Origin: a virus
Taxonomy: Duplodnaviria; Caudoviricetes
Virus record (IMG/VR): IMGVR_UViG_3300035501_000471
Reading direction: 5' to 3' (one strand)
Length of the DNA stretch: 64,000 nt
Part shown: piece by piece, positions 45,130-62,280 of the stretch
How positions within the stretch are numbered: the stretch's first letter is position 1
Layout: each line of letters starts with the position of its first letter
Made by a program: the position numbers and the translations under genes
Notes under the pieces: generated by a model
What the model was told of the DNA's origin: nothing
Databases searched by the model: none
What the model saw: only the letters and a program-made list of their open reading frames with translations

Positions 45130-46854
45130 TTATTTCTTTATATATTCTGAAAATGTCATCACTCGAAATGATTCACTCACATTATTATCTAAAATTTCTG
45201 GAATATTCTTCTGTCCATTTTTATTTGCTGAGTGAACAAAATACTTAGGGATAGGTAAATCATTTTCTTTACAATATTTAACCAACCACTTAGCACAGTC
45301 TTCACCATCTGGGTAGTCATTACCTTTTTCAATTCCATTACCTTTCTTCAAATCTCTATCAAATGAAATAAATTCAGGTAGTCCATTAGTTTCAATATAA
45401 TCTCTGAACTCATCTAAATTTTTAACCCATTTGAATTTTATATTTTTATATTTAGTATGGAGGTCATCATAGAATTTTTTGTTTCGTTGATATGCTCCAC
45501 TTTTACTTTCTTTACTCAAATATACTTCTGGGTTTCTTTCATCATCGAGCCATAGAATTTTCAAAGAATCATCATCGGTTAAGTCAGTTGTTTCCTTGTC
45601 TATTTTATCTATAGTTTTTTCAACAGTTGTAACTTCTACCTTTTCCGGTTCTGGATTTTTTAGTTCTTCTTTCTTATTTACTTTTTTTGGTTTCAGTTCA
45701 TCTTTAAGTGATTCGTGATGACCATAAACAGTTTTGGGAATAACCGCTAATGTAATAGGAAGAATTGATTTTACTCCATATTTTTGAAGTTCCAAGCAAA
45801 TGTCATCAAGGGTAGCTCCTGAAGAAATATTATCATCAAAAATTACAACATTCTTACCTTTGAGTTTTTGTTGGATACCATTTAAGTTAGGATTTATTTC
45901 AAACAAACCCTCAATAGAACGTCTTTTACTATCTTCCAATGACTTTATTTCAAAATTCTTAGCACGACCATCAGAACCTATTGTTTTATCTTTACCTCTA
46001 CGACCTTTTCTCAAAATCTTAGCTTGGTCTTGAAGATTTGCTAATAGTTCCTCTTTTTGTTTGAACTCTCTTGTAGGTCTTCCTTGTTTTCGATTAGCCT
46101 TTGTGTATAGAATTTCATCTTTCAAGTCATCAATCTTCAATCGTAGTTCGTACAAATCAGCATCTTTTTTCCAATGTTCAATATCTTGTTGTAGTTGGTA
46201 AATGTCCTTATCAGTCAATCCAACTTCATGAGCTTGTTCATAATTGATATATACCTTACGAATGTTTTTCGTCATTAGGTCAGGGATACATTTAATACCC
46301 GGTGAATCTTTATAACCTCTTAATATATATCCAACCATTTCTTTATTAAATGCTGATGAACTTTGAGGATATGTAATAATGTCAATAGGATTTTTCTTCA
46401 ATAGTTGACGAATATATAATGATGTACGTTTCATAAATTTGTCAATACTATCAAAATCAATATTACGATTTTCAAGTTCAGAATATTTGGTGGGGTGTTT
46501 TAGGGCCTTGGAAGCTCTCATGTCAGACAGTCTATAAAGATTGTATGATGTGACTCCACTTTTCTTTAATGGTACTTCAACAAAATCTAACTTTTTGGTT
46601 TCTGGATTAAAAATTCTGGTTGATGTTGAATCTGTATCATTTTTACCGGGCACGAACTTAAATGTTCTATCACCAGATTTTGAACCATGTGAAAAACCTT
46701 CTTCAAGTTCATCATCAACACACAACTCATCATAACCCATTTCATGTTCAGCATCCATTAACATTTGGATAAAATCAATGGTAGATATTCGATTATCTTC
46801 AAATTTCATATCTTTATCTTGACCTAATTGGAAATCTTCAAAAGATTTAATCAT
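45130..46854 (-). CDS. Phosphoribosyltransferase-fold protein fused to a receiver-like (cyclic-phosphate-processing REC-type) domain
   Basis: PQSSS and VVIFDDNISSGATL; C-terminal LWLDDER...ISFDRDL...G.DCAKWL...VHSAN; CATAAATA at 46885-46892. Confidence 0.72.
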   Translation of the reverse strand: MIKSFEDFQLGQDKDMKFEDNRISTIDFIQMLMDAEHEMGYDELCVDDELEEGFSHGSKSGDRTFKFVPGKNDTDSTSTRIFNPETKKLDFVEVPLKKSGVTSYNLYRLSDMRASKALKHPTKYSELENRNIDFDSIDKFMKRTSLYIRQLLKKNPIDIITYPQSSSAFNKEMVGYILRGYKDSPGIKCIPDLMTKNIRKVYINYEQAHEVGLTDKDIYQLQQDIEHWKKDADLYELRLKIDDLKDEILYTKANRKQGRPTREFKQKEELLANLQDQAKILRKGRRGKDKTIGSDGRAKNFEIKSLEDSKRRSIEGLFEINPNLNGIQQKLKGKNVVIFDDNISSGATLDDICLELQKYGVKSILPITLAVIPKTVYGHHESLKDELKPKKVNKKEELKNPEPEKVEVTTVEKTIDKIDKETTDLTDDDSLKILWLDDERNPEVYLSKESKSGAYQRNKKFYDDLHTKYKNIKFKWVKNLDEFRDYIETNGLPEFISFDRDLKKGNGIEKGNDYPDGEDCAKWLVKYCKENDLPIPKYFVHSANKNGQKNIPEILDNNVSESFRVMTFSEYIKK

Positions 46855-46897: not shown

Positions 46898-47668
46898 TTA
46901 CCACAGGTTGTTAGTTTCTTTGAGGTAAAACTCTTTCTTAACTCGTTCGACTGAAATGTCATAGTAGTTTTTACTTATTTCAGTTCCTATGTATTTTCTG
47001 TCTAATCGTTCACAAACAGTACAAGTTGTTCCTACTCCTGAAAATGGATCATAAACGACATCATTTTTGAATGTGAATAGTTTTAATATTCTTTCAACTA
47101 ATTCTTCAGGAAACATAGCAGGATGACCAAACTCTTTCATCCTTCTTTCAGGTGATATATTCCACTTAGCGGTTGTCCATTTCTTAAACTCATCAGGAAC
47201 TATACTTATGTTTTCTTTATCACCAATATGTTTAGGATTATTTTTGAAGAAATACTCGATATATTCCCATGTACTTTTTAGATATGGTTTTGACGGACTA
47301 CACCAACTACCCCAAGCAGTAACAGGACAATTATAATTATTTTTTTCCCATATTATTTCACTCCCCCAAGTAAGACCACACTTAGTTAAAATGTTAGATA
47401 CTATATGATGTGTTGGATAATTCACTGTAAATATTGGTTGAACATTCACAAAAATTCGACCATCATCTTTCAAAATCCGGGCACATTCTTCAAATACTTT
47501 AGTCAACCATTCTTCATATTGGACTGGATTAAATGTGTCATCAAAACTATCATACTCCTTTTCAAACATATATGGTGGACTGGTAATAATACAATCTACA
47601 AAATTATCAGGTAGAGTTTTCATAAATTCCAAACAGTCCTCATTATATATTTTATTCAACTCTACCAT
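46898..47668 (-). CDS. DNA N4-C/N6-A methyltransferase, beta class
   Basis: TSPPY, HPAMFP, DPFSGVGTT. Confidence 0.92.
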   Translation of the reverse strand: MVELNKIYNEDCLEFMKTLPDNFVDCIITSPPYMFEKEYDSFDDTFNPVQYEEWLTKVFEECARILKDDGRIFVNVQPIFTVNYPTHHIVSNILTKCGLTWGSEIIWEKNNYNCPVTAWGSWCSPSKPYLKSTWEYIEYFFKNNPKHIGDKENISIVPDEFKKWTTAKWNISPERRMKEFGHPAMFPEELVERILKLFTFKNDVVYDPFSGVGTTCTVCERLDRKYIGTEISKNYYDISVERVKKEFYLKETNNLW

Positions 47669-48444
47669 AATTGATTTCCTTTATCATGTAGAAGAACCTC
47701 TATTCTTTTGTTAGCCAAGTTAAAGTATTCTTCTGTTATTTCAAATCCTATAAATTGTCTATTTGTGTTAATACAAGCTACCGCAGTTGTTCCACTTCCC
47801 ATACAGTTATCTAAGACTACTTCATTTTCATTTGTATAGGTCTTAACCAACCATTCAATTAATTCAACAGGTTTTTGTGTAGGGTGTTCTTCTCCATTAC
47901 ATAGGTGTTCTTTTTTGATTTTGACAACTGAACGAGGGAACTTATATTCACTTATTATAGGATTAATTACTCTGTCAAAATTACCATAACATTGATTTTT
48001 ATCTGTGTGTTCACCATTACCTATTGGATGATTCTTTCTATCAGGGGCATATTCCATTTGAGGATTATATGTACCAAGTTTTTTATAGAATACCATAATG
48101 TCCTCATGACTTCTCATAGGCATCCGTTTAGCATTTAAGAACCCCGTAGGTCTATCCTTTTCCCAGATTAAATTATATCTCCACAATGATGGGTTAGATG
48201 TCATTAAATTGGCTGAGAACATCCCCTGACCAAATAACACAATGACACCCTTATCTTTAATTATCCTTTCATATTGTTCCCATAATTGGTCAAAAGGTAT
48301 AACTGAATCCCACTTGGCGGATTTATTTCCTTTATTTAAGACACCATAAGGTAAATCACAACAAATCATATCAATGGACTTATCAGGTATTTTTGACATT
48401 CCAATGATACAATCTTCATTATATATTTTATTTAACTCTACCAT
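47662..48444 (-). CDS. DNA N6-A methyltransferase, beta class
   Basis: CDLPY, HPTQKP, DNCMGSGTT. Confidence 0.92.
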   Translation of the reverse strand: MVELNKIYNEDCIIGMSKIPDKSIDMICCDLPYGVLNKGNKSAKWDSVIPFDQLWEQYERIIKDKGVIVLFGQGMFSANLMTSNPSLWRYNLIWEKDRPTGFLNAKRMPMRSHEDIMVFYKKLGTYNPQMEYAPDRKNHPIGNGEHTDKNQCYGNFDRVINPIISEYKFPRSVVKIKKEHLCNGEEHPTQKPVELIEWLVKTYTNENEVVLDNCMGSGTTAVACINTNRQFIGFEITEEYFNLANKRIEVLLHDKGNQLW

Positions 48445-49319
48445 AAATTTGTTTCTTCATCATAACTTAAATAGAGGGATTCATAAACCATTGCATTTGA
48501 ATCCTTACCTATTGTCCTTTTGAAAGATGAATTACCAGATTTGATATATAAGTGATGATTATAACATTCAGTTGGAACATTACAAGTATTATCCACGTTA
48601 CCTGATTTTCCATCAAAAGACATAATGAACTTTATGTTATTTTGTTTTAATTTACTTAGTTCAGAAAAAAATTTGTCAAAGTCCAATCCACCAAAATACA
48701 TTCCCTTTGTGTTAAAATAAGGAGGATCCAGATATAGGAAATCATTTATCTTAGCCTGTGAAAATATATCTTCATATGAACAATGTCTGAACTCAATATC
48801 AACTTTATTTAACTTCTCAGACCATTCTTGTAAAATTGGTTGGAGATTATCAGGTGTTATGCCGTTTCTTGTTAAATGAAAAGAGTTATTAAATTCACCA
48901 TTTTTATTATATCTGGGCATACCATTAGTAGTTGTCCTCATAATAAAAAAGAAAATAAATGGATTGTGAGTTTTATTATATTCATCACGTTTCTGTTCAA
49001 AATATTTTCTTTTTATATCAACATCAGAAGTGGAATTTAGTTCAGTCCACATCTTTTTATATTGAGACATTATTTCATCCGGACAATTTTTTATTTTGTT
49101 CCATAGTGAAATCAAGTCACCATTTAAGTCAGAACAGACAATCTTTTTTACTGATATATCACTGTCTAACAACATTCTCATCATTGAACAACCACCACAA
49201 AATGGTTCATAATAAGTATCAATTTGTTGAGGAAAATATTGTATAATTTCCTTGGCTTGACTTCGTTTACTACCAGACCACTTTATGATTGGTTGAAATT
49301 TACCACAGACTTTGTTCAT
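48438..49319 (-). CDS. Dam-family (alpha class) N6-A methyltransferase
   Basis: KWSGSK, YEPFCGG, SDLN, YLDPPY. Confidence 0.92.
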   Translation of the reverse strand: MNKVCGKFQPIIKWSGSKRSQAKEIIQYFPQQIDTYYEPFCGGCSMMRMLLDSDISVKKIVCSDLNGDLISLWNKIKNCPDEIMSQYKKMWTELNSTSDVDIKRKYFEQKRDEYNKTHNPFIFFFIMRTTTNGMPRYNKNGEFNNSFHLTRNGITPDNLQPILQEWSEKLNKVDIEFRHCSYEDIFSQAKINDFLYLDPPYFNTKGMYFGGLDFDKFFSELSKLKQNNIKFIMSFDGKSGNVDNTCNVPTECYNHHLYIKSGNSSFKRTIGKDSNAMVYESLYLSYDEETNLW

Positions 49320-50148
49320 CTTTATGGTTTTTTAATGTTAGACCTTTGATATTTTCATAAAGATATTTGTATAACTTCATGACTGATATTTTCTTACTTG
49401 AAATTGAATTAGCATAGTTTCTTATTACATCAAAATCAAGTAATTTCAACATCTCTGATTTAATTCTTTCATCAGTACAATAGAAATAAACTTCCTGTGC
49501 AAACTCACCTATATGGGATGGTCTTTTTCCTAAACAACCATTTCCCCAATTACACATAGAATAACAAAAATCAGGTGAAATATCTTTGTTTTTACCTGTC
49601 ATATAATCACCATTCTTTCTACGATGTTCAATGATAGTTATTTCATTTAATTCATAGTTGGGTTTACTATTTAACTTACCTGATTTTGGTCGACGATAAA
49701 TGTTAAAACAACAATGTAAATCTCTATCTGTATAATGAGCTAATCCTAAATCCTCACTATAAATCAAATCAAATTTATATAACTTAATATCATTGTTGTA
49801 ACATGAAATTGGTAAAATGAAAGCAACATAATCACCTTCTTCCACACATTTGTTATAGAAATCTTGTATCAATTTATTGTGGACACCAAAAGGAGGATTA
49901 CCAATGAATAATCGACCTTTCTTATATGTTAAATTTAGTTTGAGAAAATCAGCTTGTATTATGTTTTCAGATTCAGGAACAATGTCATAAGCGATGCATC
50001 CTTCTATTTGATTAGAGAAAGAACCATCACCAGCACTTGGTTCGATTACTTCTGTTATGTTGTCTTTACCTATAATGTCAAAGGTTTTTTTAATTAACCT
50101 TTTAGATAGGTCAACAGAAGTATAGTATTTGTCATTATTAATCTTCAT
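49300..50148 (-). CDS. DNA N6-A methyltransferase, gamma-like
   Basis: DKYYT, IEPSAGDGSF, QADFL, GNPPF, AFILP. Confidence 0.85.
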   Translation of the reverse strand: MKINNDKYYTSVDLSKRLIKKTFDIIGKDNITEVIEPSAGDGSFSNQIEGCIAYDIVPESENIIQADFLKLNLTYKKGRLFIGNPPFGVHNKLIQDFYNKCVEEGDYVAFILPISCYNNDIKLYKFDLIYSEDLGLAHYTDRDLHCCFNIYRRPKSGKLNSKPNYELNEITIIEHRRKNGDYMTGKNKDISPDFCYSMCNWGNGCLGKRPSHIGEFAQEVYFYCTDERIKSEMLKLLDFDVIRNYANSISSKKISVMKLYKYLYENIKGLTLKNHKDEQSLW

Positions 50149-50488
50149 CCTTTATTAGTAAATTTTTCAACTTCTCATTAAACAAAGCGTCAGCACCTTT
50201 TTCTTTATATATATCAATAAGTTTCTTTCGGGTTTCTTTATATGACTTTTTCCATTCCTCTGATGCTTTGATTTTCTTTTGAAGTCTCAATTTTTTTTCC
50301 AATCGCCTCAAGTAATCAACAGCACTTCCTTCTTTTTTTCCTTCGATATTTCTAACTCGATTAAGTACATCTAAAACAGCGTGTGTTATACCCTGTTCTG
50401 ATGTTTTATATTCATCATCAATCTCCACACCATCTTCTAATGGTTCAGAGATTACATTAGTGCTGTTAATTAATTTATCTAATTTCAT
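50138..50488 (-). CDS. Chimeric mini-protein: VWA-gene N-terminus fused to peptidase-gene C-terminus
   Basis: Near-identical to 54574-54749 and 54824-54966; intact frame; promoter-like motif 4 nt upstream. Confidence 0.7.
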   Translation of the reverse strand: MKLDKLINSTNVISEPLEDGVEIDDEYKTSEQGITHAVLDVLNRVRNIEGKKEGSAVDYLRRLEKKLRLQKKIKASEEWKKSYKETRKKLIDIYKEKGADALFNEKLKNLLIKDED

Positions 50489-50640
50489 AACTTAAAAATA
50501 ACAAAAGGCTGATGAAAACCTCACCAACCTTTAATACATTATATAAATTTAACTATATCAAATTCCAAAAATTATCATCAACAAATTTTTGAAACTCACT
50601 ATCTAATGGTTTCATATCTTTTAATATTGTTGAGATGAAA

Positions 50641-51528
50641 TCAGACAAAATCCTCTGGTCTGACTCCATACATTTCATAGTAATCTGCAACTCCACATTC
50701 GAGGTCATCTTCACTATATGTAGTTTTTATATCTTTGAAATCAAGTCCAATTTCTTCATCGGTAACTTCACCATACATTTCAAGGTCATCATTATCACAA
50801 TATATAGTTAATTTACTAAATCGAATTTCACCATCACACCAATATTCACCATAACTTCTACGTGAACCAGAAGTCCACACATCATATTCTGAATTTATAA
50901 GACAATTACCTACTGATAATTCTATTTCATCTTCAAATTCAGTCGTTTCATCCATATCCTCACGATATTCAAAATCAAAATTTAGATGATTTTCAATAAT
51001 ATTATAAAGTTCTTGAATATCATCTTCTGTCAATGTCTTTTTCATCCACTCTACAAAACGACGATGTTCAATAACATCTCTTTTTTCTTGATGTTTTTTA
51101 TGGATATCATCATAGTTATGGATTTCCTTATTAGATTTTCCTCTATATCTATCCATATGGTGGTCTTTATCTTGACCGATATGACGTTTATTCCTTTTTT
51201 GTATCAGTTTTTTTACTTCTTCACCATTATCTTTCCACCAAACAGAGAAGATTTCCATATTACCTATAACAACACGATAACCATCTTGTAAGTCTATACA
51301 AAATGTTGCAGGATTTTTGTCATCACCATTATCATACTTTTCACAATACTCATGGAAATCTTTAACAACATCTATAATATCATCATCATGAATATCATAC
51401 AAAAGAGGTTTATCCCACTCATATTTTGGTAAACCATGTTGTTTTATAATGGCTCTCAATTTTCCACTTTGAAAACCTTCATTTAGTGAATTTAGTTTTA
51501 AAAAATCAGAAAAACTTAAAACGTTCAT
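50641..51528 (-). CDS. Hypothetical late protein, candidate internal head protein
   Basis: MNVLSFSDFLKLNSLNEG; CATAAATA at 51550-51557. Confidence 0.65.
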   Translation of the reverse strand: MNVLSFSDFLKLNSLNEGFQSGKLRAIIKQHGLPKYEWDKPLLYDIHDDDIIDVVKDFHEYCEKYDNGDDKNPATFCIDLQDGYRVVIGNMEIFSVWWKDNGEEVKKLIQKRNKRHIGQDKDHHMDRYRGKSNKEIHNYDDIHKKHQEKRDVIEHRRFVEWMKKTLTEDDIQELYNIIENHLNFDFEYREDMDETTEFEDEIELSVGNCLINSEYDVWTSGSRRSYGEYWCDGEIRFSKLTIYCDNDDLEMYGEVTDEEIGLDFKDIKTTYSEDDLECGVADYYEMYGVRPEDFV

Positions 51529-51562
51529 TTCAATAAGTTTATTTTACCATATTTATGAAAAT

Positions 51563-52735
51563 TTACCAAAGTTTTTCTTCATCTGACTTTTTAACTTCTT
51601 TTTTATCAGGTATTTCAGTTAAACTATTATCTATGGCATACTCTATTCTGGTCTTGGCTATTGGTAAGTAATCTTCAGTTATTTCAATACCTATGTAGTT
51701 ATAATTAGCATCTCTATCATAATTCTCACTCATCACTGCTTTTCCTGTTGAACCAGAACCATTAAAACAATCCAGCACAGTTCCACCTTTAGGTGTGACT
51801 AATCTAACCAAGTATTTCATCAAAGAACAAGGTTTACAGGTTGGGTGAAAATTCTTACGGGCAACTCCGCTTCTATTAAACTGATTATTGGCTGATTCTA
51901 ATTCAGGATTTCTATCACTTTTGACAACCAATTCAAAATCATCTAAACCCTCATCTCTATCCCTACGAGAAGCCTTGGCACAGTAAAAATACCTATATTC
52001 TTCGTTAGGAAATCCTTTACATACTTCATTGTCATCTTCATCATAAGTGAGTATTACATTAGCTGGAAATCTACCTTCATCTATTGTTCGTTCACCTGTC
52101 ATTGGTTTCCATCCACCATCATAAGCTTGCCATTTTTCTATTGATTCATCTGTCATCCTATTATAAGCATTCATATTAAACTCATAATTGGATTTATCTT
52201 TTTCACCTGTAATTGGTACTCGACATTCTTCAATATTAAGGGCACCAACATTGTTATTATACATATTATCAATCAGAGAACCTTCAAATGGTTTTCTGGC
52301 GATAATAATAGGTTCATATGCTGGTTTTAGAGCGTTTCCATACTTATATAATTCACTATCGACTGGATGACCTAATTTCTTTTCTAACATTTTACCAACA
52401 TTAGAACTTTTAGGCATACCACTACCATATAACCACATAATAGTATCTCTTATTTCAAAGCCTGCATCTTCAATCGCACACACCATTCTATGAAATGTTC
52501 GAGTGGCACAGAAAGCTACCAAATATCCACCGGGTTTCAATACTTTAAGACAAGTTTTCCAAGTTTCGGGGTTGAGAGTAATTCCTGTATTATCCCATTT
52601 ATTAGACAGGAAATTTAGTTCATATGGTGGATCACAACAAATGGATGTTATACTATTTTCTTCTATAACATCCAACATATCCATCATGTCACCATTATAT
52701 AATTTATAGTTTTTTCCTTCTGAGTATAACTTCAT
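51563..52735 (-). CDS. DNA methyltransferase, beta class
   Basis: CDPPY, HPTCKP, DCFNGSGSTG. Confidence 0.92.
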   Translation of the reverse strand: MKLYSEGKNYKLYNGDMMDMLDVIEENSITSICCDPPYELNFLSNKWDNTGITLNPETWKTCLKVLKPGGYLVAFCATRTFHRMVCAIEDAGFEIRDTIMWLYGSGMPKSSNVGKMLEKKLGHPVDSELYKYGNALKPAYEPIIIARKPFEGSLIDNMYNNNVGALNIEECRVPITGEKDKSNYEFNMNAYNRMTDESIEKWQAYDGGWKPMTGERTIDEGRFPANVILTYDEDDNEVCKGFPNEEYRYFYCAKASRRDRDEGLDDFELVVKSDRNPELESANNQFNRSGVARKNFHPTCKPCSLMKYLVRLVTPKGGTVLDCFNGSGSTGKAVMSENYDRDANYNYIGIEITEDYLPIAKTRIEYAIDNSLTEIPDKKEVKKSDEEKLW

Positions 52736-52780
52736 TATATTACTATTTTGTTAACTTAAAAATAACAAAAGGGGAGATTT

Positions 52781-54766
52781 TTAAACCTCCCCTGATATAT
52801 CATCTTTTTCTAATTCTGAAATTTCTGTTGTTACGACTTGTTTTATACCAGCAATATCTTTTAGGTATCCAATCTCAGGTCCCAATATTCTTTCAGCGAA
52901 GTCACCCCAACTCTTATCATAATATACTAAACAAAGTATATCTTTCAAATATCTTGAACAATTCTGTTTTAGATATTTTGGGTCTTTGGGGTTACTATAA
53001 CTTGTTGCCCACAGACCATCACCAAATATAAAGATAGGACAGTCATGGTTTCTTCTTTTCAATTTAAGTATCTCTAATGACACCGCTTCAAAGTTTTCAA
53101 TTCCACCACCGAGTCCTTGATCAGATATAAATTTCCAGATGTCTTTTAATAGGTCTTCAAACTTAGCCTTGTTTCTAATATCTCTTTCTTTTACCTTATA
53201 TGGTTTAGATAATCTTTCACCAAATCCATATATATTTACTTCATTAAATGCTAACTTTCTACAAAAATCCAAAACTCTCTGTAAAAATGTAAATACTAAT
53301 GGTTGAGATACAGAACCAGAAAAGTCAATGAAACAATTTATCTGTTCAATCTCACCACCAGCAGGAGATGATTTAGGTAACACAGCATCTCTCCAAAGGT
53401 GTTTTTTATCACCCCATGTAGTTTTCTTATACTTAGATGAACTTGTTCCTGACCTCTTTGATTTAGAACGTAAGAAGATTTTAACCATTTCTTTCCATTC
53501 CATATTAGTTATCTTACCTTTCAGAACACCACGAAGAATACCTTTTGCCAATGATGAACCAGACTTTCCAGACTCAGCGGCTTTCTTTTCAAGTTCTTCC
53601 GCAGCCTCCTTAGCAATAGTTTCATCATCCTCCATTTCATCTGATGTGTCTGTGTTTTTGTCCTTTTTCATTTTTTCAATGTCTTTTGGATCAAACCCAC
53701 CTTTTTTCATATCATCGGTAAATAGGTCATCATCAGGAGCATCTTCCAATGTTTCACCAGCTAACTCACCAGAACCAGATTTAGTTTCATCTGTTGCTTT
53801 GTCAATATCTTCTTTCAAATCACTGGCTTTTTCTTCTGAGGATTTACCATCTTCACTGTCACCAAAAGAATCCTTCATTTTATCAAGTAATTCTTTTTCT
53901 GATGATGAACTTGTCCCCTCTTTAGTTCTATCAAGTGCATCCTTTATCTCACTTTCCAATGAATCATAATCTTCTGAATCATAATCTATTGTGTCATCAT
54001 AGTCAACATCATCATCAGAACCATCACCAGAATCCCCACTTGATGAACTTCCACTTGTTCCTCCATGTGAACTTGATGAACCACCTGAAGATTTACTACT
54101 ACTTCCACCTGAACCTTCACCTTCGGAATCACCATCATCAAAGTCACCATCTTCATCTGAACCACCTGAAGAACTATCATCACCAGAATCATCTCCAAAG
54201 TCCCAGTCATCATCATCTCCAAGGTCATCATCATCTCCAAAATCACCATCTTCATACTCATCTTCATCATCACCACTGGGAGAAGAACCACCAAAATCAT
54301 CACCTTCTTCATCACCAGTTTCACCATGACGAGAATCAGAATCATAATCGAAATCATCAAATTCAAAATCCGGTTCATGTTTGTCAGATTCATCATCTTC
54401 ATCATCCTCAGATTTTGGATCCTCTAATTTTTCAATGTCATCCATATCATCCATAGTTGATGACTTAAATAATGAACCATCACCATCACCTCCAGCACCA
54501 CCATCGTCATAAGGTTTATCTGTCACACTGTCAGTATCATCACCACCGGGTTTTTCACCACCTGTATCATCACCACTTCCTTCTTTCTTTCCTTCGATAT
54601 TTCTAACTCGATTAAGTACATCTAAAACGGCTTGTGTTATACCCTGTTCTGATGTTTTATATTCATCATCAATTTCCACACCAACTTCATCACCATCTTC
54701 TAATGATTCAGTGATTACATTAGTGTTTTTAATTAATTTATCTAATTTCTCAAAAATACTTTCCAT
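52781..54766 (-). CDS. VWA-like protein with long acidic D/G/S linker (DUF2201 C-terminal-like)
   Basis: FIDFSGS MIDAS motif, GLGGG, IFGDG; low-complexity region ~53990-54580. Confidence 0.75.
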   Translation of the reverse strand: MESIFEKLDKLIKNTNVITESLEDGDEVGVEIDDEYKTSEQGITQAVLDVLNRVRNIEGKKEGSGDDTGGEKPGGDDTDSVTDKPYDDGGAGGDGDGSLFKSSTMDDMDDIEKLEDPKSEDDEDDESDKHEPDFEFDDFDYDSDSRHGETGDEEGDDFGGSSPSGDDEDEYEDGDFGDDDDLGDDDDWDFGDDSGDDSSSGGSDEDGDFDDGDSEGEGSGGSSSKSSGGSSSSHGGTSGSSSSGDSGDGSDDDVDYDDTIDYDSEDYDSLESEIKDALDRTKEGTSSSSEKELLDKMKDSFGDSEDGKSSEEKASDLKEDIDKATDETKSGSGELAGETLEDAPDDDLFTDDMKKGGFDPKDIEKMKKDKNTDTSDEMEDDETIAKEAAEELEKKAAESGKSGSSLAKGILRGVLKGKITNMEWKEMVKIFLRSKSKRSGTSSSKYKKTTWGDKKHLWRDAVLPKSSPAGGEIEQINCFIDFSGSVSQPLVFTFLQRVLDFCRKLAFNEVNIYGFGERLSKPYKVKERDIRNKAKFEDLLKDIWKFISDQGLGGGIENFEAVSLEILKLKRRNHDCPIFIFGDGLWATSYSNPKDPKYLKQNCSRYLKDILCLVYYDKSWGDFAERILGPEIGYLKDIAGIKQVVTTEISELEKDDISGEV

Positions 54767-54768
54767 GA

Positions 54769-56679
54769 TTAATCTTCCTCTGATGTTTTTGTTACTTTAG
54801 GAGCGAGTTTTTCAGCTTCATCAAACAAAGCGTCAGCACCTTTTTCTTTATATATATCAATAAGTTTCTTTCTGGTTTCTTTATAAGCCTTCTTCCATTC
54901 CTCTGATGCTTTAATTTTCTTTTGGGTTTTCAATTTTTTACCCAATCTTCTCAAACCATCAACCGCTAATGACATGGCACCAAATTTAGCACCCGGTGTT
55001 TCATCTTCATCACCAATAATGTCAAAGAAATGACTTACATCTTTGAAAACATCATCTAAGAATGTAGGAATTTCTCTTTTCTCCCATTTTAATATTTTGT
55101 CATCTATTAACTTGTCAAAATCTTCAGTAAGGTCTTTTTTCAATGTTGGTATATATGAAACAACTTCTTCTACATCTTCATGTACCAAATCTGTAACTTT
55201 CTTTTCAGTCAATTCAGTCATAGCTTGTCTCATTGAATATAAAGTATCACAAGTATCTGAACTAATTCTACCAATATCATATAGTCTTTCAAGATTAATA
55301 AAGGTATCCACAAATTTTTGAATTGGGTTTTTCTTTTTTAATTTATCCTTTATGGTTTCTGCCTTTTCTCTATCTCTTTCTTCTTTAGTTTTACCTGTTT
55401 TCCTAGTTTTTTCGGCTTCTCTTTCTGCCTTTTCTTTTTCCCTTCTAACCTTATCTTTATGTTCTTCAATCGCTCTTTTACGACGTTCACTTTTTCTCTT
55501 TTTATCAAGGTCATTTAATATTATAGCTTCCAAATCATCCTTAGCTTGTCTAATGATTTTTCTTTCTTCTCGTATCTCTTTATCACCTTCATATAAAGTA
55601 TTGAGAGCTTCTGTTAATGATTTCATCGCAGTTTTTACATCATTAACCACATCTTCTTCATCCTTTCTAAAGGCTTCACCTATTTTAGATGCATTCTTTA
55701 ACAGATTTTTTCTCAACATTTTAATATCAGAAATAGTCACTGAAATTTCATGGTCATCCATTTCTTTAGGGTTGGTTCGTAAGTCATCTACTACATTTTG
55801 TATATCAGATTCTAAATCACCAATTTCACCCAACATTGAATCCATTAATTTTTCCAACTCTCGTCTTAAACCAGCAAGGTCAGCCTTATCAACTATTTTA
55901 CGGTCTTTTTTACCATATAGTTCATCCATAGCTTTCTTTAACTTTTCACCAGCGATTTCTTTTTCCGCAGATGTTGAATCTTTATCATTCAAAACAGTCA
56001 AGGCTTCTTCTATTGCTTTAAGGGCGGCCTTGGTCTTATCATCGAGTTTTATACCATTCAGTTTCATCCATTTTTCATACTCCATGTCACCATATTTGTC
56101 ATAGATGTCTTCCCATGTCATTCCTGTGTATGCTGGATTATAACAACCATTCATCTTTTTCCAGAAATCTTTAGAAACAATACCATCATCAACCATAGAG
56201 GCGTTTACTTCAAAGTCAGTGGCCAGATTACATTTCATATGAATTTCTTTAGTTGCTCCTGTTCCAAATCTCTTTATACCCTTTTCAACATGCTTAAAGA
56301 AATTGTGCATTAACTCATGAAATAAAATACCAAACACCCGTTCTTTTTTCATTTTACAAGTATTATACACAAAATGAGCGTTTATCCATAAGTTTTTCTT
56401 TTGGTCAACCGCCATTGTATTAATACCCATCGAACTGGGATAATTTGGTATAAAAAAGATTTTACTGTATTTAATATATGAGTAAAAGAAACGATATTCA
56501 GAAGAAATCTTAAACATCGCATCAGTTACCACTTTTACTATATCTTTAGTTTCAACTGGAATTATAGCCTTTAATGTCATATCATAAATGTCAATCGTTC
56601 CAAGTTCCAAAAAAAGGTCTTCATTACCCTCAACAGCAGAACTGGATTCATTAAGACGATTGTAGTATATAAGATTCAT
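54769..56679 (-). CDS. Putative zinc metallopeptidase (DUF2201 N-terminal-like) with helical extension
   Basis: TMAVD...LWIN..F...FHELMH...H...NLATDFEVN...WEDIYD; CATAAATA at 56702-56709. Confidence 0.78.
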   Translation of the reverse strand: MNLIYYNRLNESSSAVEGNEDLFLELGTIDIYDMTLKAIIPVETKDIVKVVTDAMFKISSEYRFFYSYIKYSKIFFIPNYPSSMGINTMAVDQKKNLWINAHFVYNTCKMKKERVFGILFHELMHNFFKHVEKGIKRFGTGATKEIHMKCNLATDFEVNASMVDDGIVSKDFWKKMNGCYNPAYTGMTWEDIYDKYGDMEYEKWMKLNGIKLDDKTKAALKAIEEALTVLNDKDSTSAEKEIAGEKLKKAMDELYGKKDRKIVDKADLAGLRRELEKLMDSMLGEIGDLESDIQNVVDDLRTNPKEMDDHEISVTISDIKMLRKNLLKNASKIGEAFRKDEEDVVNDVKTAMKSLTEALNTLYEGDKEIREERKIIRQAKDDLEAIILNDLDKKRKSERRKRAIEEHKDKVRREKEKAEREAEKTRKTGKTKEERDREKAETIKDKLKKKNPIQKFVDTFINLERLYDIGRISSDTCDTLYSMRQAMTELTEKKVTDLVHEDVEEVVSYIPTLKKDLTEDFDKLIDDKILKWEKREIPTFLDDVFKDVSHFFDIIGDEDETPGAKFGAMSLAVDGLRRLGKKLKTQKKIKASEEWKKAYKETRKKLIDIYKEKGADALFDEAEKLAPKVTKTSEED

Positions 56680-56715
56680 TACTAAAAGTATTATTATAAG
56701 TTATTTATGGTGATA

Positions 56716-56747
56716 AAAAAACCTGTCCAAAAAATGAACAGGTTTTT
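56716..56747 (-). terminator. Intrinsic terminator
   Basis: aaaaacctgt...acaggttttt. Confidence 0.6.
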
Positions 56748-56767
56748 AATTATATTGAGTAATCAAA

Positions 56768-59473
56768 TTAACTATTTACTTGATATCTATCATCACATAA
56801 TTTGAAATAATTTTTAAGTTGTTTAGCATTTGATTTATCCATCAGTTTGTCAAGAATATCAACATGCATCTGTTTAATATAATTATCCTTTGAACGAGAA
56901 TATGTATTATTAATCAAATTTGTCATATTGATAAGATATTCTTCTGGAGGTAAATCAGTTTTTGAATAATGTGATTCAATATAGGTTAAACATTTTTCAG
57001 CAATCTCAGCGGCGGAAGGAATAGGTTCAGGTATCACATAAGAAGGATCTTCAAATACACTCTTCATATTAACCACTGTATCAGCACGAGATGTAATATA
57101 ATCAATATATTTATTACCTGTCACCTCACCAATCGCACCATACACGATATCTTTCAATGTTTCTATAGGTAATTCTGTGAAGTTAGTACAACCTTCCATC
57201 TTACAATGTGCCTTAAATTCTTTCATCATAGCTGACCAAGAACGAGGTGTTGGGTGGGCAACTTCACCTTCAGCATGAGCGTCAGTATCAATATTGTGCC
57301 AGTTAATATATTCACCATTACTATCTTTTTCACTAACTAAGAAAGACAATGTTAATTCATCAAATCCACCCTTAGTAGTCGCCCATTTTCTCCATTCGCT
57401 AAATTCTGGGATAAAGTTAAGTTGCATACCAAAACGGGTTGTGACTACTGAACCAGTTCTTTCAAATGTTGATGATACTTCTTCATCATCATTAGGTCTA
57501 TTTGAACAAGCAATAATAGCCCATTTATCACCAAGGATATATCGACCATCACTATATGAACGGTTTAGTAAAAGTTGCATCAAAATTTTAAAGATTGAAG
57601 GATCGGCTCTAAAGAACTCATCAAACATTAAAATACCTCCATCAAATGATTCTTCAACAATTAAGTTTTTATCATCATCATAATATTCTTTTACATCACC
57701 ATTTGCAATAAAGTTACGAAGTTGTCTTTCTTTTGGATCATTTGTTTTTCTATAACAAGGCAACCAAGTCTTAGGAGCATCATCACTTCTTACAAATGAT
57801 TTGTTTTCCATATCATCATCATCGAAGCCCAATTTATTAGCAAAGTTTTTAACAACTGAACTATTATCTGCAAATTCTTTCATTGTTTGTCTTACAGGCA
57901 TAGGAAGTGACAAACCATCAGGTGTCAAATCACCACACTCAACAACCATAAGTGATTTTTTAGTTTCAGCAGATGATTTAGACTTATTGTATTCTTTAAT
58001 GATTGCATCTGGAATTGAAGATTTACCAATACCGGGAGCACCCCAAATTAATAGAGGTTTCAAAGCATCATTACCCACTTCACCGGGTGTATAAAACATT
58101 CTGGTCTTTATATATTTCTTCAATCCTTCGGTATTTACATCACGAATAGATTTAAGACCTCCACTTTTACCAGAGAAACCAACTCTATCTTCTTCAATAA
58201 TCTCATCAAACTTACCAACATTAGCACTTTCATTAATCATACCAATAAAGGTTTTGTAGTTTTCATATTCAACATCACCTTTTTCAATATTATCATAGTA
58301 TCCAGTAAGTCCGGTTAATTGAGCTTCTGTTTTAACATTATCATTCAAAAGTCGATTTACAACAGGAGAATATGCAGTTACACCTTTAACATCACCATTA
58401 GCAATACAATTTAATGATGTGAAAGGACTGGTAGCAGGAATAAAACCATTTTCACCAAAGACTGCAACTAAAAATTCATCAACTTTAGTAATACCTATCT
58501 TAAACAATGATTTTACTTTTTCAATACCTTTCTTGACGAATGATTTTGTTTTGTCCCAAAGTCCTTCATTCAACATAAATGTTTCAAAGTCCATCACATG
58601 AGAAAATTTAGACTCATATTTGAAATCTTTGAATTTACTGTTCCAGAAATCAGCTGACATTTCCTTTTCTTCATCTTCATTAGCACCAATAAAAGGAAGT
58701 GGGGCTCGTTTTTCAGACTCAACGGTTCTTCTTTCACCAGTATCAGGATCATCAACTATTTCCTTCACTTTAATCATCTTAGGTTTCCATTTATTAACAG
58801 ATTGATTAAATTTTGAACCTAAGAACATATTTTTAAAGTCAGCACATGAACCAACATTCCAATCACAAATACTATCATTATTAAATGTTGATTTGTAGAA
58901 CATACCTTCCATATGTTTAACTGCACTAACATCCCATTCACTTAAATCAGCATTGGGGAGATTTGTAAAGGCCAACAAAGCGGTCATATCCTTTACATTA
59001 CGAGTATCAAGTAGTGATAAAGGAGTTTTTCTATTCATATTCTTTTCCTCTTTACAAATTACATCATAAATTGCATTGACTACTTTGAATACATTTCTTT
59101 TTGAACTACTTGTGTTATCAACAACTATTCGTGAACGTGGATCTGTACTGAGTTCAACTTCTTCAGGTTCTTCTGATGTCTCATCTTCATCACCATCTTC
59201 ATCTTCATCAGTATCAGGTTCTACAATTTCTGTCTTTCTTGTATCATCACCACCTTCAGAGGGTTCATCTTCATCATCATCAAACATTGAATCAAATCGA
59301 CCTTCATTCAATTTATTTGATTTAATAGATTTATTAATCTTATCTTCATTCTGAACAAACCACTCATCAAATTCTACTAAAAAATTTTTATTAGAGTGTC
59401 CTTCTTCGAGACGTTGGTTATATCCATCTAACCATTCCATCACCGCAGGACTTAAAAGTTGGTCTAATGTCAT
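56768..59473 (-). CDS. MoxR-like AAA+ ATPase with N-terminal BspA/DUF285-like repeats
   Basis: WGAPGIGKS, MFDEFFRA, ACSNRP, RF, PTPRSW; WDVSAVKHMEGMF / WNVGSCADFKNMF repeats. Confidence 0.8.
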   Translation of the reverse strand: MTLDQLLSPAVMEWLDGYNQRLEEGHSNKNFLVEFDEWFVQNEDKINKSIKSNKLNEGRFDSMFDDDEDEPSEGGDDTRKTEIVEPDTDEDEDGDEDETSEEPEEVELSTDPRSRIVVDNTSSSKRNVFKVVNAIYDVICKEEKNMNRKTPLSLLDTRNVKDMTALLAFTNLPNADLSEWDVSAVKHMEGMFYKSTFNNDSICDWNVGSCADFKNMFLGSKFNQSVNKWKPKMIKVKEIVDDPDTGERRTVESEKRAPLPFIGANEDEEKEMSADFWNSKFKDFKYESKFSHVMDFETFMLNEGLWDKTKSFVKKGIEKVKSLFKIGITKVDEFLVAVFGENGFIPATSPFTSLNCIANGDVKGVTAYSPVVNRLLNDNVKTEAQLTGLTGYYDNIEKGDVEYENYKTFIGMINESANVGKFDEIIEEDRVGFSGKSGGLKSIRDVNTEGLKKYIKTRMFYTPGEVGNDALKPLLIWGAPGIGKSSIPDAIIKEYNKSKSSAETKKSLMVVECGDLTPDGLSLPMPVRQTMKEFADNSSVVKNFANKLGFDDDDMENKSFVRSDDAPKTWLPCYRKTNDPKERQLRNFIANGDVKEYYDDDKNLIVEESFDGGILMFDEFFRADPSIFKILMQLLLNRSYSDGRYILGDKWAIIACSNRPNDDEEVSSTFERTGSVVTTRFGMQLNFIPEFSEWRKWATTKGGFDELTLSFLVSEKDSNGEYINWHNIDTDAHAEGEVAHPTPRSWSAMMKEFKAHCKMEGCTNFTELPIETLKDIVYGAIGEVTGNKYIDYITSRADTVVNMKSVFEDPSYVIPEPIPSAAEIAEKCLTYIESHYSKTDLPPEEYLINMTNLINNTYSRSKDNYIKQMHVDILDKLMDKSNAKQLKNYFKLCDDRYQVNS

Positions 59474-59510
59474 TTTTATAAATTTATTACATATATTATA
59501 TTTACGGAAA

Positions 59511-61391
59511 TTAAGCTTCTGAAGTTCTTAAAATCTCTCTCAATCTGCGTTTCCACATTCTACGACCTTTTTCACCTCTAAAAGCAATACCCATTTGAGT
59601 GGTCATACGCCAAGAAACACCAGTATAATTTGAACCTTCATTACCTTCAAGTAGATAATTTACTTCATTAATAAAATCTTCAATATCTTTTCTTGGAATG
59701 ATACATTGGTCACTTGGTAATTCTTCTTCTGTCATAGATTGTTGTTCACGAAGTTGTTTTTGAATTACGTTCCACATAACTTCATAAGGAGGATTGATTC
59801 TCACAGGTTGGAATCTTTGACGAATAGCTTCCCAGTCACCTTTACCACCAGTCTTTACAACTTCAGTTTCAAGTTCATCCAAACTCATGTTACCAATAAC
59901 GACAACACAACCATTGAATACGAACTCATCTGGAATAAGTGGTTTTGTATTTTTCTTCAATTCATCCCACTCAGCTGATATTAGGTTGTCCATGTCAGCA
60001 CCAGTCATTTCTTCACCTTTTTTACCAGAACCACCATATTCACGTCTTTTCTTTTTGAAGAACTCATTTTTTTCTTCATTTGATTTTTGACCAATCTCAG
60101 CAAAATATCTTTCTTGACGTGTTTTCTTACCAACTTCATAACATTCTGTACTTGAGTCACGAACTTCACGAGGCATCTTAATAGGTTGAGGTCTTGTTTG
60201 TAATAGACGTTTCCAGAAGGCTACACGTTTTGTTCCTGATACAACATTGGCGGCGTCATCGAGAAGAATAAGTTTACCATTAAATTTATACATCATACGA
60301 TACAAAGCATCCACATCAGTTGCACCATTACCAACATCAACATAGTCTTTCTTTTCAACCATTCCATTTTTCTTCAATGTCTGTTCAAGTGCATATGATT
60401 TACCAGCACCGGCTCTACCTGTAATATAAAGTCCTTTGGTTGTGAATACAGATTTATCATCATCATTAAGTTGACCATTTTGTTTTACATAGTGACAGAA
60501 TGTATCAACAATGTCTTTAATCATTTGTGTTGATTCTTCAAAATCTTGGGTTTCTTTTTCCAACCATTTTTTACGTTCTTCAGCACGTTCAGCTTCATAA
60601 CTTTCTATATCATAAGCATCATCAACCGACACTCTAAGAGCCGAACCAGAACCAACTAAACTTGGATCCAATACACCTCTTACTTCTTCATATAAACCAT
60701 TAAGAGCATCTGAAATAATATATGTAACATATTTCATTACAGAGTCTTTACCATCTATTGAATCATAAATGTCTTTACAGATAGGGTTTGACCCAACATT
60801 TTTTAAGATTTCACCAGCGGCCTTAGCGGGAGATAGACTTTCCAATAATTTTACAACAAAATCTTTCATTGTGGGAGACCATCTTTCAACAATGGCAATG
60901 TGTTTGGGACCATAACCAGCCTTAGCCTTAAATGCCTCATTAAGAACACTTTCATTTACATTGACTGATTTCATATCTTCTACAACCTGTTCAATCATAT
61001 CTTTCAAACCAAGTTTTTCAGAAGAATATGTTATCTCAGCTGTATTCTTACCATCAAGTTCAAAATGATTAAATACGGCGATTACTTTCGTATAACTATC
61101 TTTACAAAATACAAAACTCTTTCCTGCTTCGTTATCAGTTTCAAAGAACCAAACACCGGGTTTTCCATTTACATATACAACAGTTCCACATACTGCAAAG
61201 TTATTTACACCACCTTTTTTAAGTGCTCTCATTATGACTCTTGAAGCCTTTAATAAGTATTCATCATCTGAAATAGGTGTATCTAAAAAAGAGGCATCTA
61301 TACCATCTGATGTAACCTCATTGTCCAAACTTTCAAGAATATGATTTAACTTATATTCTTCGACATTAAAATCGGAAAATTTTTTTAGCAT
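59511..61391 (-). CDS. AAA+/P-loop ATPase
   Basis: ITGRAGAGKS, ILLDD, VVIGN, AIRQR; CATAAATA at 61415-61422. Confidence 0.78.
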   Translation of the reverse strand: MLKKFSDFNVEEYKLNHILESLDNEVTSDGIDASFLDTPISDDEYLLKASRVIMRALKKGGVNNFAVCGTVVYVNGKPGVWFFETDNEAGKSFVFCKDSYTKVIAVFNHFELDGKNTAEITYSSEKLGLKDMIEQVVEDMKSVNVNESVLNEAFKAKAGYGPKHIAIVERWSPTMKDFVVKLLESLSPAKAAGEILKNVGSNPICKDIYDSIDGKDSVMKYVTYIISDALNGLYEEVRGVLDPSLVGSGSALRVSVDDAYDIESYEAERAEERKKWLEKETQDFEESTQMIKDIVDTFCHYVKQNGQLNDDDKSVFTTKGLYITGRAGAGKSYALEQTLKKNGMVEKKDYVDVGNGATDVDALYRMMYKFNGKLILLDDAANVVSGTKRVAFWKRLLQTRPQPIKMPREVRDSSTECYEVGKKTRQERYFAEIGQKSNEEKNEFFKKKRREYGGSGKKGEEMTGADMDNLISAEWDELKKNTKPLIPDEFVFNGCVVVIGNMSLDELETEVVKTGGKGDWEAIRQRFQPVRINPPYEVMWNVIQKQLREQQSMTEEELPSDQCIIPRKDIEDFINEVNYLLEGNEGSNYTGVSWRMTTQMGIAFRGEKGRRMWKRRLREILRTSEA

Positions 61392-61425
61392 ATCTATTTA
61401 TTACATATATATTATATTTATGTTT

Positions 61426-62280
61426 TTAGAAGTTCAAGTATAAACTTTCAAACACATTTGTCTTTTCTACATTTTGTGTTGTCACCCTAAAACCTCCATA
61501 AGTTGATTTAATATTCACTTTATTTTCATAACAATCACCGGGTACAATAATCTCATTCTTTTCATTATCATAAGACACAGCATACCTTATTCCTTCTTCA
61601 TTCATTATTCTTAATCTGTCGAAGAAATCAATGTAATCTATCTTACCAAAATATCTACCTGTATTTCTCGTGAGTTCATATGGTGGATCCAAATATAAAA
61701 AATCACCATCTTCAACTTGGTCAAATATCACATTATAATCACATCTTCTAAATTCGATGTTATTACCTTTTACAATACTGTGCCAATTCCATATATCTCT
61801 CTCTAACCTTTTTGGTTTTATTCCATCACGAGTCAAATGAAAAGTGTTGTTAAATTCCCCATAACCATTATATCGAGGAATACCATTAGTCGTTGTCCTC
61901 ATCAAAAAGAAAAACAAATAAGGACTTCTTGTTTGATTAAATTCATCCCTGACTTCCTCAAAATATTTACGTTTGTCTTGTCGGTCAGTAATCTCTTTCA
62001 TCTTACACCACATCTTAGTGTATTCCTTCAACAACCCCTTTGGATCATTCTTTACTGTGTTCCATAAATCTATCAAATCTCCATTTATATCAGAACACAC
62101 TATTTTATTTATGTAGGTGTGATATTCTTTCTGTGAACATAACAACTGATATATCACTGAACATCCACCACAAAAAGGTTCATAATAAGTGTCAATATAG
62201 TCCGGAAAATATTTTATTATCTCCGCACTCTGTATTCTTTTTGAACCTATCCATTTTATCACTGGGTTGAAACCACTCAT
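61426..62280 (-). CDS. Dam-family N6-A methyltransferase (paralog of 48438-49319)
   Basis: KWIGSK, YEPFCGG, YLDPPY; shared MRTTTNGxPRYN...FHLTR block. Confidence 0.92.
   Translation of the reverse strand: MSGFNPVIKWIGSKRIQSAEIIKYFPDYIDTYYEPFCGGCSVIYQLLCSQKEYHTYINKIVCSDINGDLIDLWNTVKNDPKGLLKEYTKMWCKMKEITDRQDKRKYFEEVRDEFNQTRSPYLFFFLMRTTTNGIPRYNGYGEFNNTFHLTRDGIKPKRLERDIWNWHSIVKGNNIEFRRCDYNVIFDQVEDGDFLYLDPPYELTRNTGRYFGKIDYIDFFDRLRIMNEEGIRYAVSYDNEKNEIIVPGDCYENKVNIKSTYGGFRVTTQNVEKTNVFESLYLNF

Follow-up and report, generated by a model that had tools for sequence, protein, structure and literature searches.

A four-gene AAA+, MoxR-like ATPase, zincin and VWA module of a giant tailed phage, with T4-like leaders and candidate prohead-protease sites

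The virus record IMGVR_UViG_3300035501_000471 was analysed over a stretch of 64,000 nucleotides (the window), and our subject is a module of four minus-strand, co-oriented genes, P1 to P4, encoding two AAA+ ATPases, a metallopeptidase and a von Willebrand factor A (VWA) protein. The best explanation of this module is that it represents the MoxR-type AAA+/VWA/DUF2201 zincin remodelling system of giant phages in an expanded, four-gene form. Its proteins carry conserved leader and linker motifs resembling those cut by the T4 prohead protease, and we lean, with modest confidence, towards loading of the module into the prohead and trimming there. The core of the system is known, since the MoxR plus peptidase-vWA pair of group 2.2 giant phages was described by Iyer et al. 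(2021), who suggested that it takes part in virion assembly and processing (PMC7824862). New here are the extra AAA+ gene P1, the DUF285 fusion, the cut motifs and the separation of peptidase and VWA protein. With its leaders and cut sites, the module suggests a testable location for the giant-phage pair, the prohead interior, where it would be a substrate of the head protease, and exact mature N-termini can be predicted. The four genes are:

59511-61391, minus strand: P1, a clade-specific AAA+ ATPase of 626 amino acids (AlphaFold2 (AF2) model, Walker motifs)
56768-59473, minus strand: P2, a DUF285 plus AAA_5/MoxR-like ATPase of 901 amino acids (profile matches, both domains in 10 of 10 orthologues)
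54769-56679, minus strand: P3, a DUF2201_N-type zincin peptidase of 636 amino acids with a long helical C-terminal extension (phrog_1314, hhalign, HExxH)
52781-54766, minus strand: P4, a protein of 661 amino acids with an acidic, disordered N-terminal half and a C-terminal VWA domain (phrog_1314, AF2, Foldseek)

The open reading frame (ORF) coordinates bear out a first-pass annotation of this DNA, which had described four co-oriented genes at these positions with the VWA gene starting 2 nt after the peptidase stop: the P4 ATG (54766) lies 2 nt past the P3 stop (54769-54771). The window is AT-rich (about 31% GC) and its source is a giant tailed phage with a T4-type head. Matches to the Gp23 capsid (PF07068), Portal_T4 (PF07230) and Peptidase_S77 (PF03420) families define T4-type head genes; the S77 prohead protease is of the gp21 type, bears a long C-terminal extension and is encoded beside the capsid gene. 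The window further contains a tail-sheath gene. A protein identical to P4 is encoded on a 326,518-bp contig, and relatives reach 344-411 kb, with an estimated completeness of 94-96%. Nine related IMG/VR loci carry the same four genes in the same order at 25-45% identity, so that synteny extends to relatives as the first-pass annotation had proposed to check.

Profile and structure searches identified DUF285 and AAA_5 domains in P2, DUF2201_N in P3, a VWA fold in P4 and an AAA+ fold in P1. P2 scores 60.6 bits against DUF285 (PF03382; cut-off 25, E 1.6e-16) and 29.5 bits against AAA_5 (PF07728; cut-off 22, E 8e-7). It is homologous to gp265c of phage phAPEC6, which is annotated as a MoxR ATPase (hhalign 97.8%, E 8e-13), and a VWA partner gene lies two genes downstream. 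Its two domains map as follows:

58775-59032, minus strand: DUF285 (BspA-like) repeats, P2 residues 148-233 (Pfam)
57464-58054, minus strand: AAA_5 core of P2, with Walker A GAPGIGKS and Walker B FDEFFRA; GAPGIGK and DE are invariant

In the most divergent relatives, two in number, the module is followed downstream, at a distance of a few kb, by arrays of small DUF285-repeat proteins (200-310 amino acids) similar to the P2 arm (L036, 17334-21649; L038, 16816-20465).

In the window P3 the DUF2201_N match (PF13203) is weak, at 16.2 bits under a cut-off of 23.2; nine of ten orthologues are matched, with a best E of 1.5e-6. P3 aligns with the fused DUF2201 protein of the Asteriusvirus phage UE-S1 over residues 55-196 (hhalign 94.5%), and H121, E122, H125 and H130, that is HExxH plus a further His, are invariant. 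The N-terminal half of P4 is very acidic and of low complexity. The Pfam scan gave no match for P4, nor for any of the 74 clusters of its family (517-715 amino acids). Its C-terminus adopts a VWA fold in the AF2 model (predicted local distance difference test, pLDDT, 72.5; predicted TM-score, pTM, 0.76), the top Foldseek matches being VWA and integrin I domains, and P4 aligns with UE-S1 residues 312-439 (hhalign E 3.9e-4).

52817-53359, minus strand: VWA fold of P4, with the metal-ion-dependent adhesion site (MIDAS) DFSGS at residues 481-485 (53312-53326); D481, S483 and S485 are invariant

P1 has no domain match in the Pfam scan, and its family comprises 32 related clusters, all from uncultured sources. 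An AF2 model built from 23 sequences (pLDDT 76) shows a beta-rich N-domain and a C-terminal half with the AAA+ fold, in which residues ~300-620 resemble the AAA+ modules of dynein (the AAA units), AFG3L2, Rubisco activase and NorQ. The Walker A motif, GRAGAGKS, is intact. The Walker B motif, LLDD (residues 374-379), ends in Asp-Asp instead of Asp-Glu, invariantly in the 23 sequences; P1 may be an ATP binder with poor hydrolysis, a regulatory or adaptor subunit for P2. Profile searches of all four families against solved structures gave nothing significant. Against catalogued phages, megablast of the module found no match, and tblastn of P3 found one weak match, to Roseobacter phage CRP-7.

The pair described by Iyer et al., in which the ATPase partner combines DUF2201_N (PF13203) with DUF2201 (PF09967), is exemplified by gp265c-gp264c of phages 121Q/phAPEC6/UE-S1 and by gp172/gp169 of Salicola phage SCTP-2. 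As in these phages, ATPase and partner genes are adjacent here; P2 is homologous to their ATPase (hhalign, tblastn), P3 corresponds to the HExxH half and P4 to the VWA half of their fused protein. The fused proteins of UE-S1 and SCTP-2 are encoded next to or near a MoxR-like ATPase. The PHROG profile phrog_1314 matches P3 at profile positions 9-187 and P4 at 161-325, which indicates that the two genes are halves of a protein that is normally one chain. Peptidase and VWA domain do share a chain in UE-S1 (474 amino acids), SCTP-2 (431 amino acids) and the megaphage Lak-C1 (851 amino acids). In the known pair the fused protein measures 430-474 amino acids, whereas here peptidase and VWA protein are separate and larger, a second AAA+ protein (P1) is added, and P2 has a ~300-residue N-terminal arm bearing the DUF285 repeats. 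The two domains being fused elsewhere among giant phages, P1, the DUF285 arm and the split are specific to this clade; the split and the repeats, which the first-pass annotation had singled out as unusual, are both real.

P3 and P4 are encoded separately not only in the window but throughout the nine related loci, with short spacers of varying length. A fusion by frameshift or read-through was considered and is excluded, given the variable spacer, the lack of a slippery site and the conserved leader that P4 possesses in its own right. That a separated VWA gene should keep a leader of its own supports independent targeting of its product.

The closest match to P2 among catalogued phages is the MoxR-like ATPase of Lak-C1 (MK250029; 26% identity). 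The N-terminal region of this ATPase has LSINE/S and ILINE/GF sites (here and below a slash marks the predicted cut), and DUF285 was not seen in it. Unlike the arrangement described here, its partner of 851 amino acids combines DUF2201_N with a C-terminal VWA-like DNSGS region in one chain, although this VWA-like C-terminus is weakly supported (hhalign 5.5%, E 0.007, DNSGS motif). An ORF of 710 amino acids downstream of the Lak peptidase was tried as a split VWA gene and rejected, the VWA-like part being at the C-terminus of the 851-residue protein. The Lak-C1 MoxR-like gene (L040, 8839-11625) contains nine in-frame TAG codons and is open only if TAG is a sense codon; the adjacent DUF2201 gene contains none.

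The candidate cut motifs are ILE20/S, VNE147/S and LNE152/A in P1, LNE57/G, LNE303/G and INE415/S in P2, LNE11/S in P3 and ITE20/S in P4. The capsid protein of the window has LNE8/S, ITE22/S and LNE51/S, all conserved. The motifs that the first-pass annotation had quoted from the module and the capsid protein are thus all present. Across the window [LIVM]NE[SGA] occurs 13 times against 3.6 expected, a count reached in none of 300 shuffles. For [LIVMF]NE[SGA] the excess lies in the module (6 against 0.58 expected, 0 of 1000 shuffles) and in the head proteins (4 against 0.58, 1 of 1000 shuffles), whereas the other 44 ORFs of the window show none (3 against 3.08). The main leader and linker sites are:

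61329-61391, minus strand: P1 leader, MLKKFSDF...ILE20/S; M1, F5, F8 and E20 are invariant in 23 sequences
60933-60965, minus strand: P1 double site, NVNE147/S plus VLNE152/A, in a disordered linker that leads into the helical and AAA+ parts; kept in 20 of 23 and 17 of 23 sequences
58562-58597, minus strand: internal motif of P2 resembling a capsid-targeting sequence (CTS), VMDFETFMLNE303/G, between the DUF285 region and the MoxR part; F299, N302, E303 and G304 are invariant in 10 of 10 sequences
56644-56679, minus strand: P3 leader, MNLIYYNRLNE11/S; L9 and E11 are invariant, and 9 of 10 orthologues have the site
54704-54766, minus strand: P4 leader, MESIFEKLDKLIKNTNVITE20/S; 71 of 74 family clusters keep a [LIVMF]xE[SGA] site here

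The sites are retained in orthologues of 25-45% identity, within leaders and linkers that otherwise vary. With a conserved column defined as [LIVMF]xE[SGA] in at least 60% of the sequences, such columns fall at E20, E147 and E152 in P1; at E24, E57, E303 (10 of 10) and about residue 388 in P2; at E11 and at two places in the helical tail of P3; and at about E20 in P4. No conserved cut-site column falls within the ATPase, peptidase or VWA domain. In the P1 model, pLDDT drops below 50 exactly at residues 17-36 and 144-154, where the cut sites lie.

The P4 family shows which positions of the motif are conserved. In 71 of its 74 clusters [LIVMF]xE[SGA] occurs within the first 40 residues, starting at residues 1-22, and the site takes the form [LIV]-x-E-[SA] at residues 4-24. 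Positions 1, 3 and 4 are kept; position 2 may be N, T, V, L, K, A, I, Y, F or M. This variation of the middle residue corresponds to the T4 gp21 pattern, (L/I)-x-E, and there is no strict xNE rule. In a distant clade with 35% capsid identity, the capsid site reads [IVM][FY]E/[GA], the MoxR homologue has a short leader, IQE/S, and an H[VI]DE/GL site, and the peptidase starts MRNIFE/E. Since capsid and module sites differ there in like manner, the middle residue changes together in both. On the evidence of these alignments the conserved pattern, [LIV]-x-E/[SAG], is the T4 gp21 consensus. The xNE cut rule of the first-pass annotation is therefore upheld in so far as the sites are conserved and enriched in head and module proteins, but the middle residue is not fixed as Asn. 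A reading of NES as an N-glycosylation-like N-x-S signal was excluded, NEG, NEA and T-, V- or L-E-S being found in the same columns.

The gp21-like pattern also bears on which enzyme would do the cutting. The catalytic residues of P3, the zincin of the module, are retained, and a role of this peptidase in processing structural proteins was suggested by Iyer et al. (PMC7824862), so P3 rather than the S77 protease might cut the module sites and process the capsid protein too. We consider this very improbable: the motif is the established specificity of T4 gp21, an S77 protease is encoded beside the capsid gene, and T4-type phages that lack the P3-type peptidase use the same sites. In the S77 protease (gene at 32987-34906, minus strand) the Peptidase_S77 domain occupies residues ~1-200, and the extension itself contains two Y-x-N-Y-[LV]-A-E/[TM]-LDKS copies, at residues ~333 and ~389, which recur in the orthologue of a relative, G008; these repeats look like self-processing sites in a scaffold-like tail.

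The genes of the module are associated with promoter-like boxes:

61415-61422, minus strand: CATAAATA box, 24 nt 5' of the P1 start; the exact box is present at 8 of 8 P1 orthologues
59499-59506, minus strand: CGTAAATA box 5' of P2; weak, not conserved in relatives
56702-56709, minus strand: CATAAATA box, 23 nt 5' of the P3 start; present at 7 of 9 P3 orthologues, often directly after a hairpin

CATAAATA resembles the T4 late promoter, TATAAATA. The window has 24 copies of it (9.1 expected), a number reached in none of 100 shuffles, and it stands ~20-30 nt ahead of many starts, including those of the sheath, protease, P1 and P3 genes; the capsid gene starts 82 nt past its box. A scan for sigma-70 promoters gave no excess (45 found, 52 expected). 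The first-pass annotation had reported boxes before three module genes like those at the capsid genes. The boxes are there and CATAAATA is enriched, but CGTAAATA alone is not (3 in the window against 1.9 expected). The exact CATAAATA precedes P2 in just one of nine relatives, and it was never seen before P4 in the relatives' loci. Conservation of the box at P1 and P3, mostly not at P2 and never at P4, suggests that the module forms two transcription units, P1-P2 and P3-P4.

Proteome-wide tests were made with G008, a genome of 344.7 kb (94% complete, 443 ORFs). The motif occurs within the first 30 residues of 15 ORFs, as compared with 2.7 expected and no shuffle above 9, whereas past residue 30 the motifs are about as many as expected (19 against 19.8). 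More than one motif per ORF was seen in six ORFs only: the P1, P2 and P3 orthologues, the capsid protein, an ORF of 97 amino acids and one of 918. The 97-residue ORF (107171-107464) resembles at its N-terminus a window ORF of 93 amino acids directly upstream of the portal gene. Enrichment of the motif among CATAAATA-preceded genes, which the first-pass annotation had proposed to test, is seen in G008: ORFs with an N-terminal motif tend to have CATAAATA upstream (odds ratio 4.8, p = 0.008). Sixteen ORFs (2.0 expected) have the spacing of the T4 CTS, aromatic-x-x-aromatic-[LIVM]-x-E, at their N-terminus, for example in MIKKFEEFINE/S and in a paralogue family starting MIPDFKTYIxE/S. The P1 leader, M-[IL]-K-K-F-x-D-F, and the internal P2 motif, DFxTF-[VI]NE/G, are of the same style.

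This paralogue family comprises at least six ORFs of G008 (L050-L067; ~186561-189087, 198527-201225 and 72013-74769). Four of them start MIPDFKTYIxE/S and two otherwise (ITE/S, NE/S), and all continue with [IV]W[ND]DIR[KR]RGNG. The members of this family are candidates for head-internal proteins. In the window, CTS-like leaders were also seen in two further CATAAATA-preceded ORFs whose G008 orthologues have the same leader: MNVLSFSDFLKLNSLNE/G at 50641-51528 (minus strand) and MSHNILNRDSFISE...MNE/G at 19682-21172 (plus strand). A third, at 45130-46854 (minus strand), encodes a phosphoribosyltransferase (PRTase) plus cREC_REC protein with the leader MIKSFEDF.

In T4, the internal proteins (IPs) IPI-III and Alt carry capsid-targeting sequences and are cut by the prohead protease gp21 according to the (L/I)-x-E rule (PMC9026906). 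The present system is similar in its T4-type head genes with a Peptidase_S77, in its short N-terminal leaders ending in [LIV]-x-E and in the occurrence of the same sites in the capsid propeptide. Moreover, the aromatic residues are spaced as in MKTYQEFIAE, the T4 leader (Y4, F7, I8, E10). Unlike the small basic proteins of T4, however, the cargo would consist of large ATP-dependent enzymes; Asn is favoured at the middle position in this subclade, and P2 has an internal copy of the leader. Another virus-encoded MoxR-VWA pair, similar by description, is that of the Acidianus two-tailed virus (ATV), whose MoxR ATPase p618 is a major virion component with a VWA partner, p892, and is thought to drive virion remodelling (PMC4124505). 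ATV differs in being an archaeal spindle virus without a tailed-phage head, prohead protease or peptidase partner.

From the domain identities, synteny, motif statistics and conservation we infer the following targeting, cleavage, timing and function. The CTS-like leaders would direct all four proteins into the prohead core, where the S77 prohead protease would trim them at the leader and linker sites. Trimming would remove the leaders and, in P2, the ~300-residue DUF285 arm, leaving the ATPase, peptidase and VWA domains intact. The resulting ATP-driven unfoldase/adaptor/peptidase set might then remodel or clear head-internal proteins as the very large capsid matures, and some copies would remain in the finished virion. 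A morphogenetic role of this sort fits the wide giant-phage conservation of the pair at least as well as host takeover does. If the proposal is correct, uncultured giant phages use T4-style capsid targeting on a large scale to load big enzymes, and ATP-dependent remodelling is linked either with how very large capsids mature or with the delivery of proteins to the host; the leaders might also be of use as tags by which foreign proteins are loaded into such capsids.

Published virion proteomes provide some relevant data. The phAPEC6 ATPase gp265c was detected in virions by mass spectrometry (MS; six unique peptides, 19% coverage), and its DUF2201 neighbour gp264c is not on the virion list. In the Staphylococcus giant phage DC4, a MoxR-like AAA ATPase whose gene lies beside a metallopeptidase gene was found in purified virions by MS. 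The CBB and PA5oct papers make no mention of an ATPase or VWA protein, and in RsoM2USA an ORF with a VWA domain is in the genome table and not among the virion bands identified by MS.

Several observations weigh against prohead loading and trimming. The phAPEC6 virion list also holds thymidylate synthase, a RecA-like protein and a single-stranded-DNA-binding protein, and the DC4 authors urge caution and ask for confirmation of the virion ATPase; carry-over of abundant cytoplasmic proteins is therefore possible in both cases. The Asteriusvirus and SCTP-2 homologues lack gp21-type leaders, which all four proteins have here, so that head targeting may not be general to the system. An ATPase within a closed capsid would have no obvious ATP supply. 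The invariant NE/G junction of P2, which reads H[VI]DE/GL in the distant clade and ILINE/GF in Lak-C1, could instead be a structural feature of the fold. Finally, CATAAATA also stands ahead of non-structural genes (topoisomerase, PRTase, homing endonuclease), and the box is thus no proof of a structural role or of late timing.

The homologues without leaders lend weight to a serious rival, a cytoplasmic assembly chaperone in the plain form of Iyer et al. (2021), which would assist the folding or processing of virion parts from outside the prohead, its leaders serving, for example, for partner docking, turnover or the capping of helices. In general, MoxR-VWA systems act in the cytoplasm as maturation factors, the pair is common among giant phages in which it has no leaders, and the module is flanked by methyltransferase and helicase genes, with no head genes. 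We regard this alternative as somewhat unlikely, as it leaves unexplained why only head and module proteins show an excess of the motif, why the split-off VWA gene has its own leader in 71 of 74 clusters, and why the leader style is common to many unrelated late ORFs.

The motif evidence that favours prohead loading applies equally to an injected cargo. On this proposal the trimmed set of two ATPases, VWA adaptor and zincin would be ejected with the DNA and would unfold or cleave host or defence proteins, or refold ejected ones. The conserved sites spare the catalytic domains, as in Alt and the IPs of T4; cargo with a T4 CTS reaches the cell interior (PMC9026906), and homologous ATPases have been detected by virion MS. 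However, the proteins are large and probably oligomeric, and the pair is deeply conserved across giant-phage lineages, unlike the patchy, fast-changing injected anti-defence proteins. Because of this wide conservation, ejection into the host is the less likely fate, and injection for host takeover is unlikely and speculative; if it did occur, an ATP-driven remodelling machine would constitute a new class of injected phage cargo.

The least credible proposal is a cytoplasmic conflict or counter-defence system of the bacterial vWA-MoxR type. Such modules occur in nucleoside-triphosphate-dependent conflict systems (Kaur et al. 2020; PMC7159879), and a target could be bound by the DUF285 repeats. 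The four proteins showed no VMAP, effector or sensor domains in Pfam and PHROG scans, which included no dedicated search for them, and gene order and sequence are stable across the clade, unlike those of diversifying conflict loci.

The immediate surroundings of the module consist of DNA methyltransferase genes and a DnaB-type helicase gene. Six methyltransferase genes surround it, at 46898-52735 and 61426-62280 of the window, and the P4 end is marked by a possible terminator:

52770-52793, minus strand: terminator-like hairpin plus T-run at the P4 end

A chimeric duplicate of parts of P3 and P4 is present nearby, as an ORF of 116 amino acids (50138-50488, minus strand). Its segment 50315-50486 is a copy of the P4 5' end (54566-54749; 86-94% identity) and its segment 50175-50323 a copy of the P3 3' end (54818-54966; 88% identity), the two blocks being joined in swapped order. 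The ORF retains a P4-type leader, in which ISE/P replaces ITE/S.

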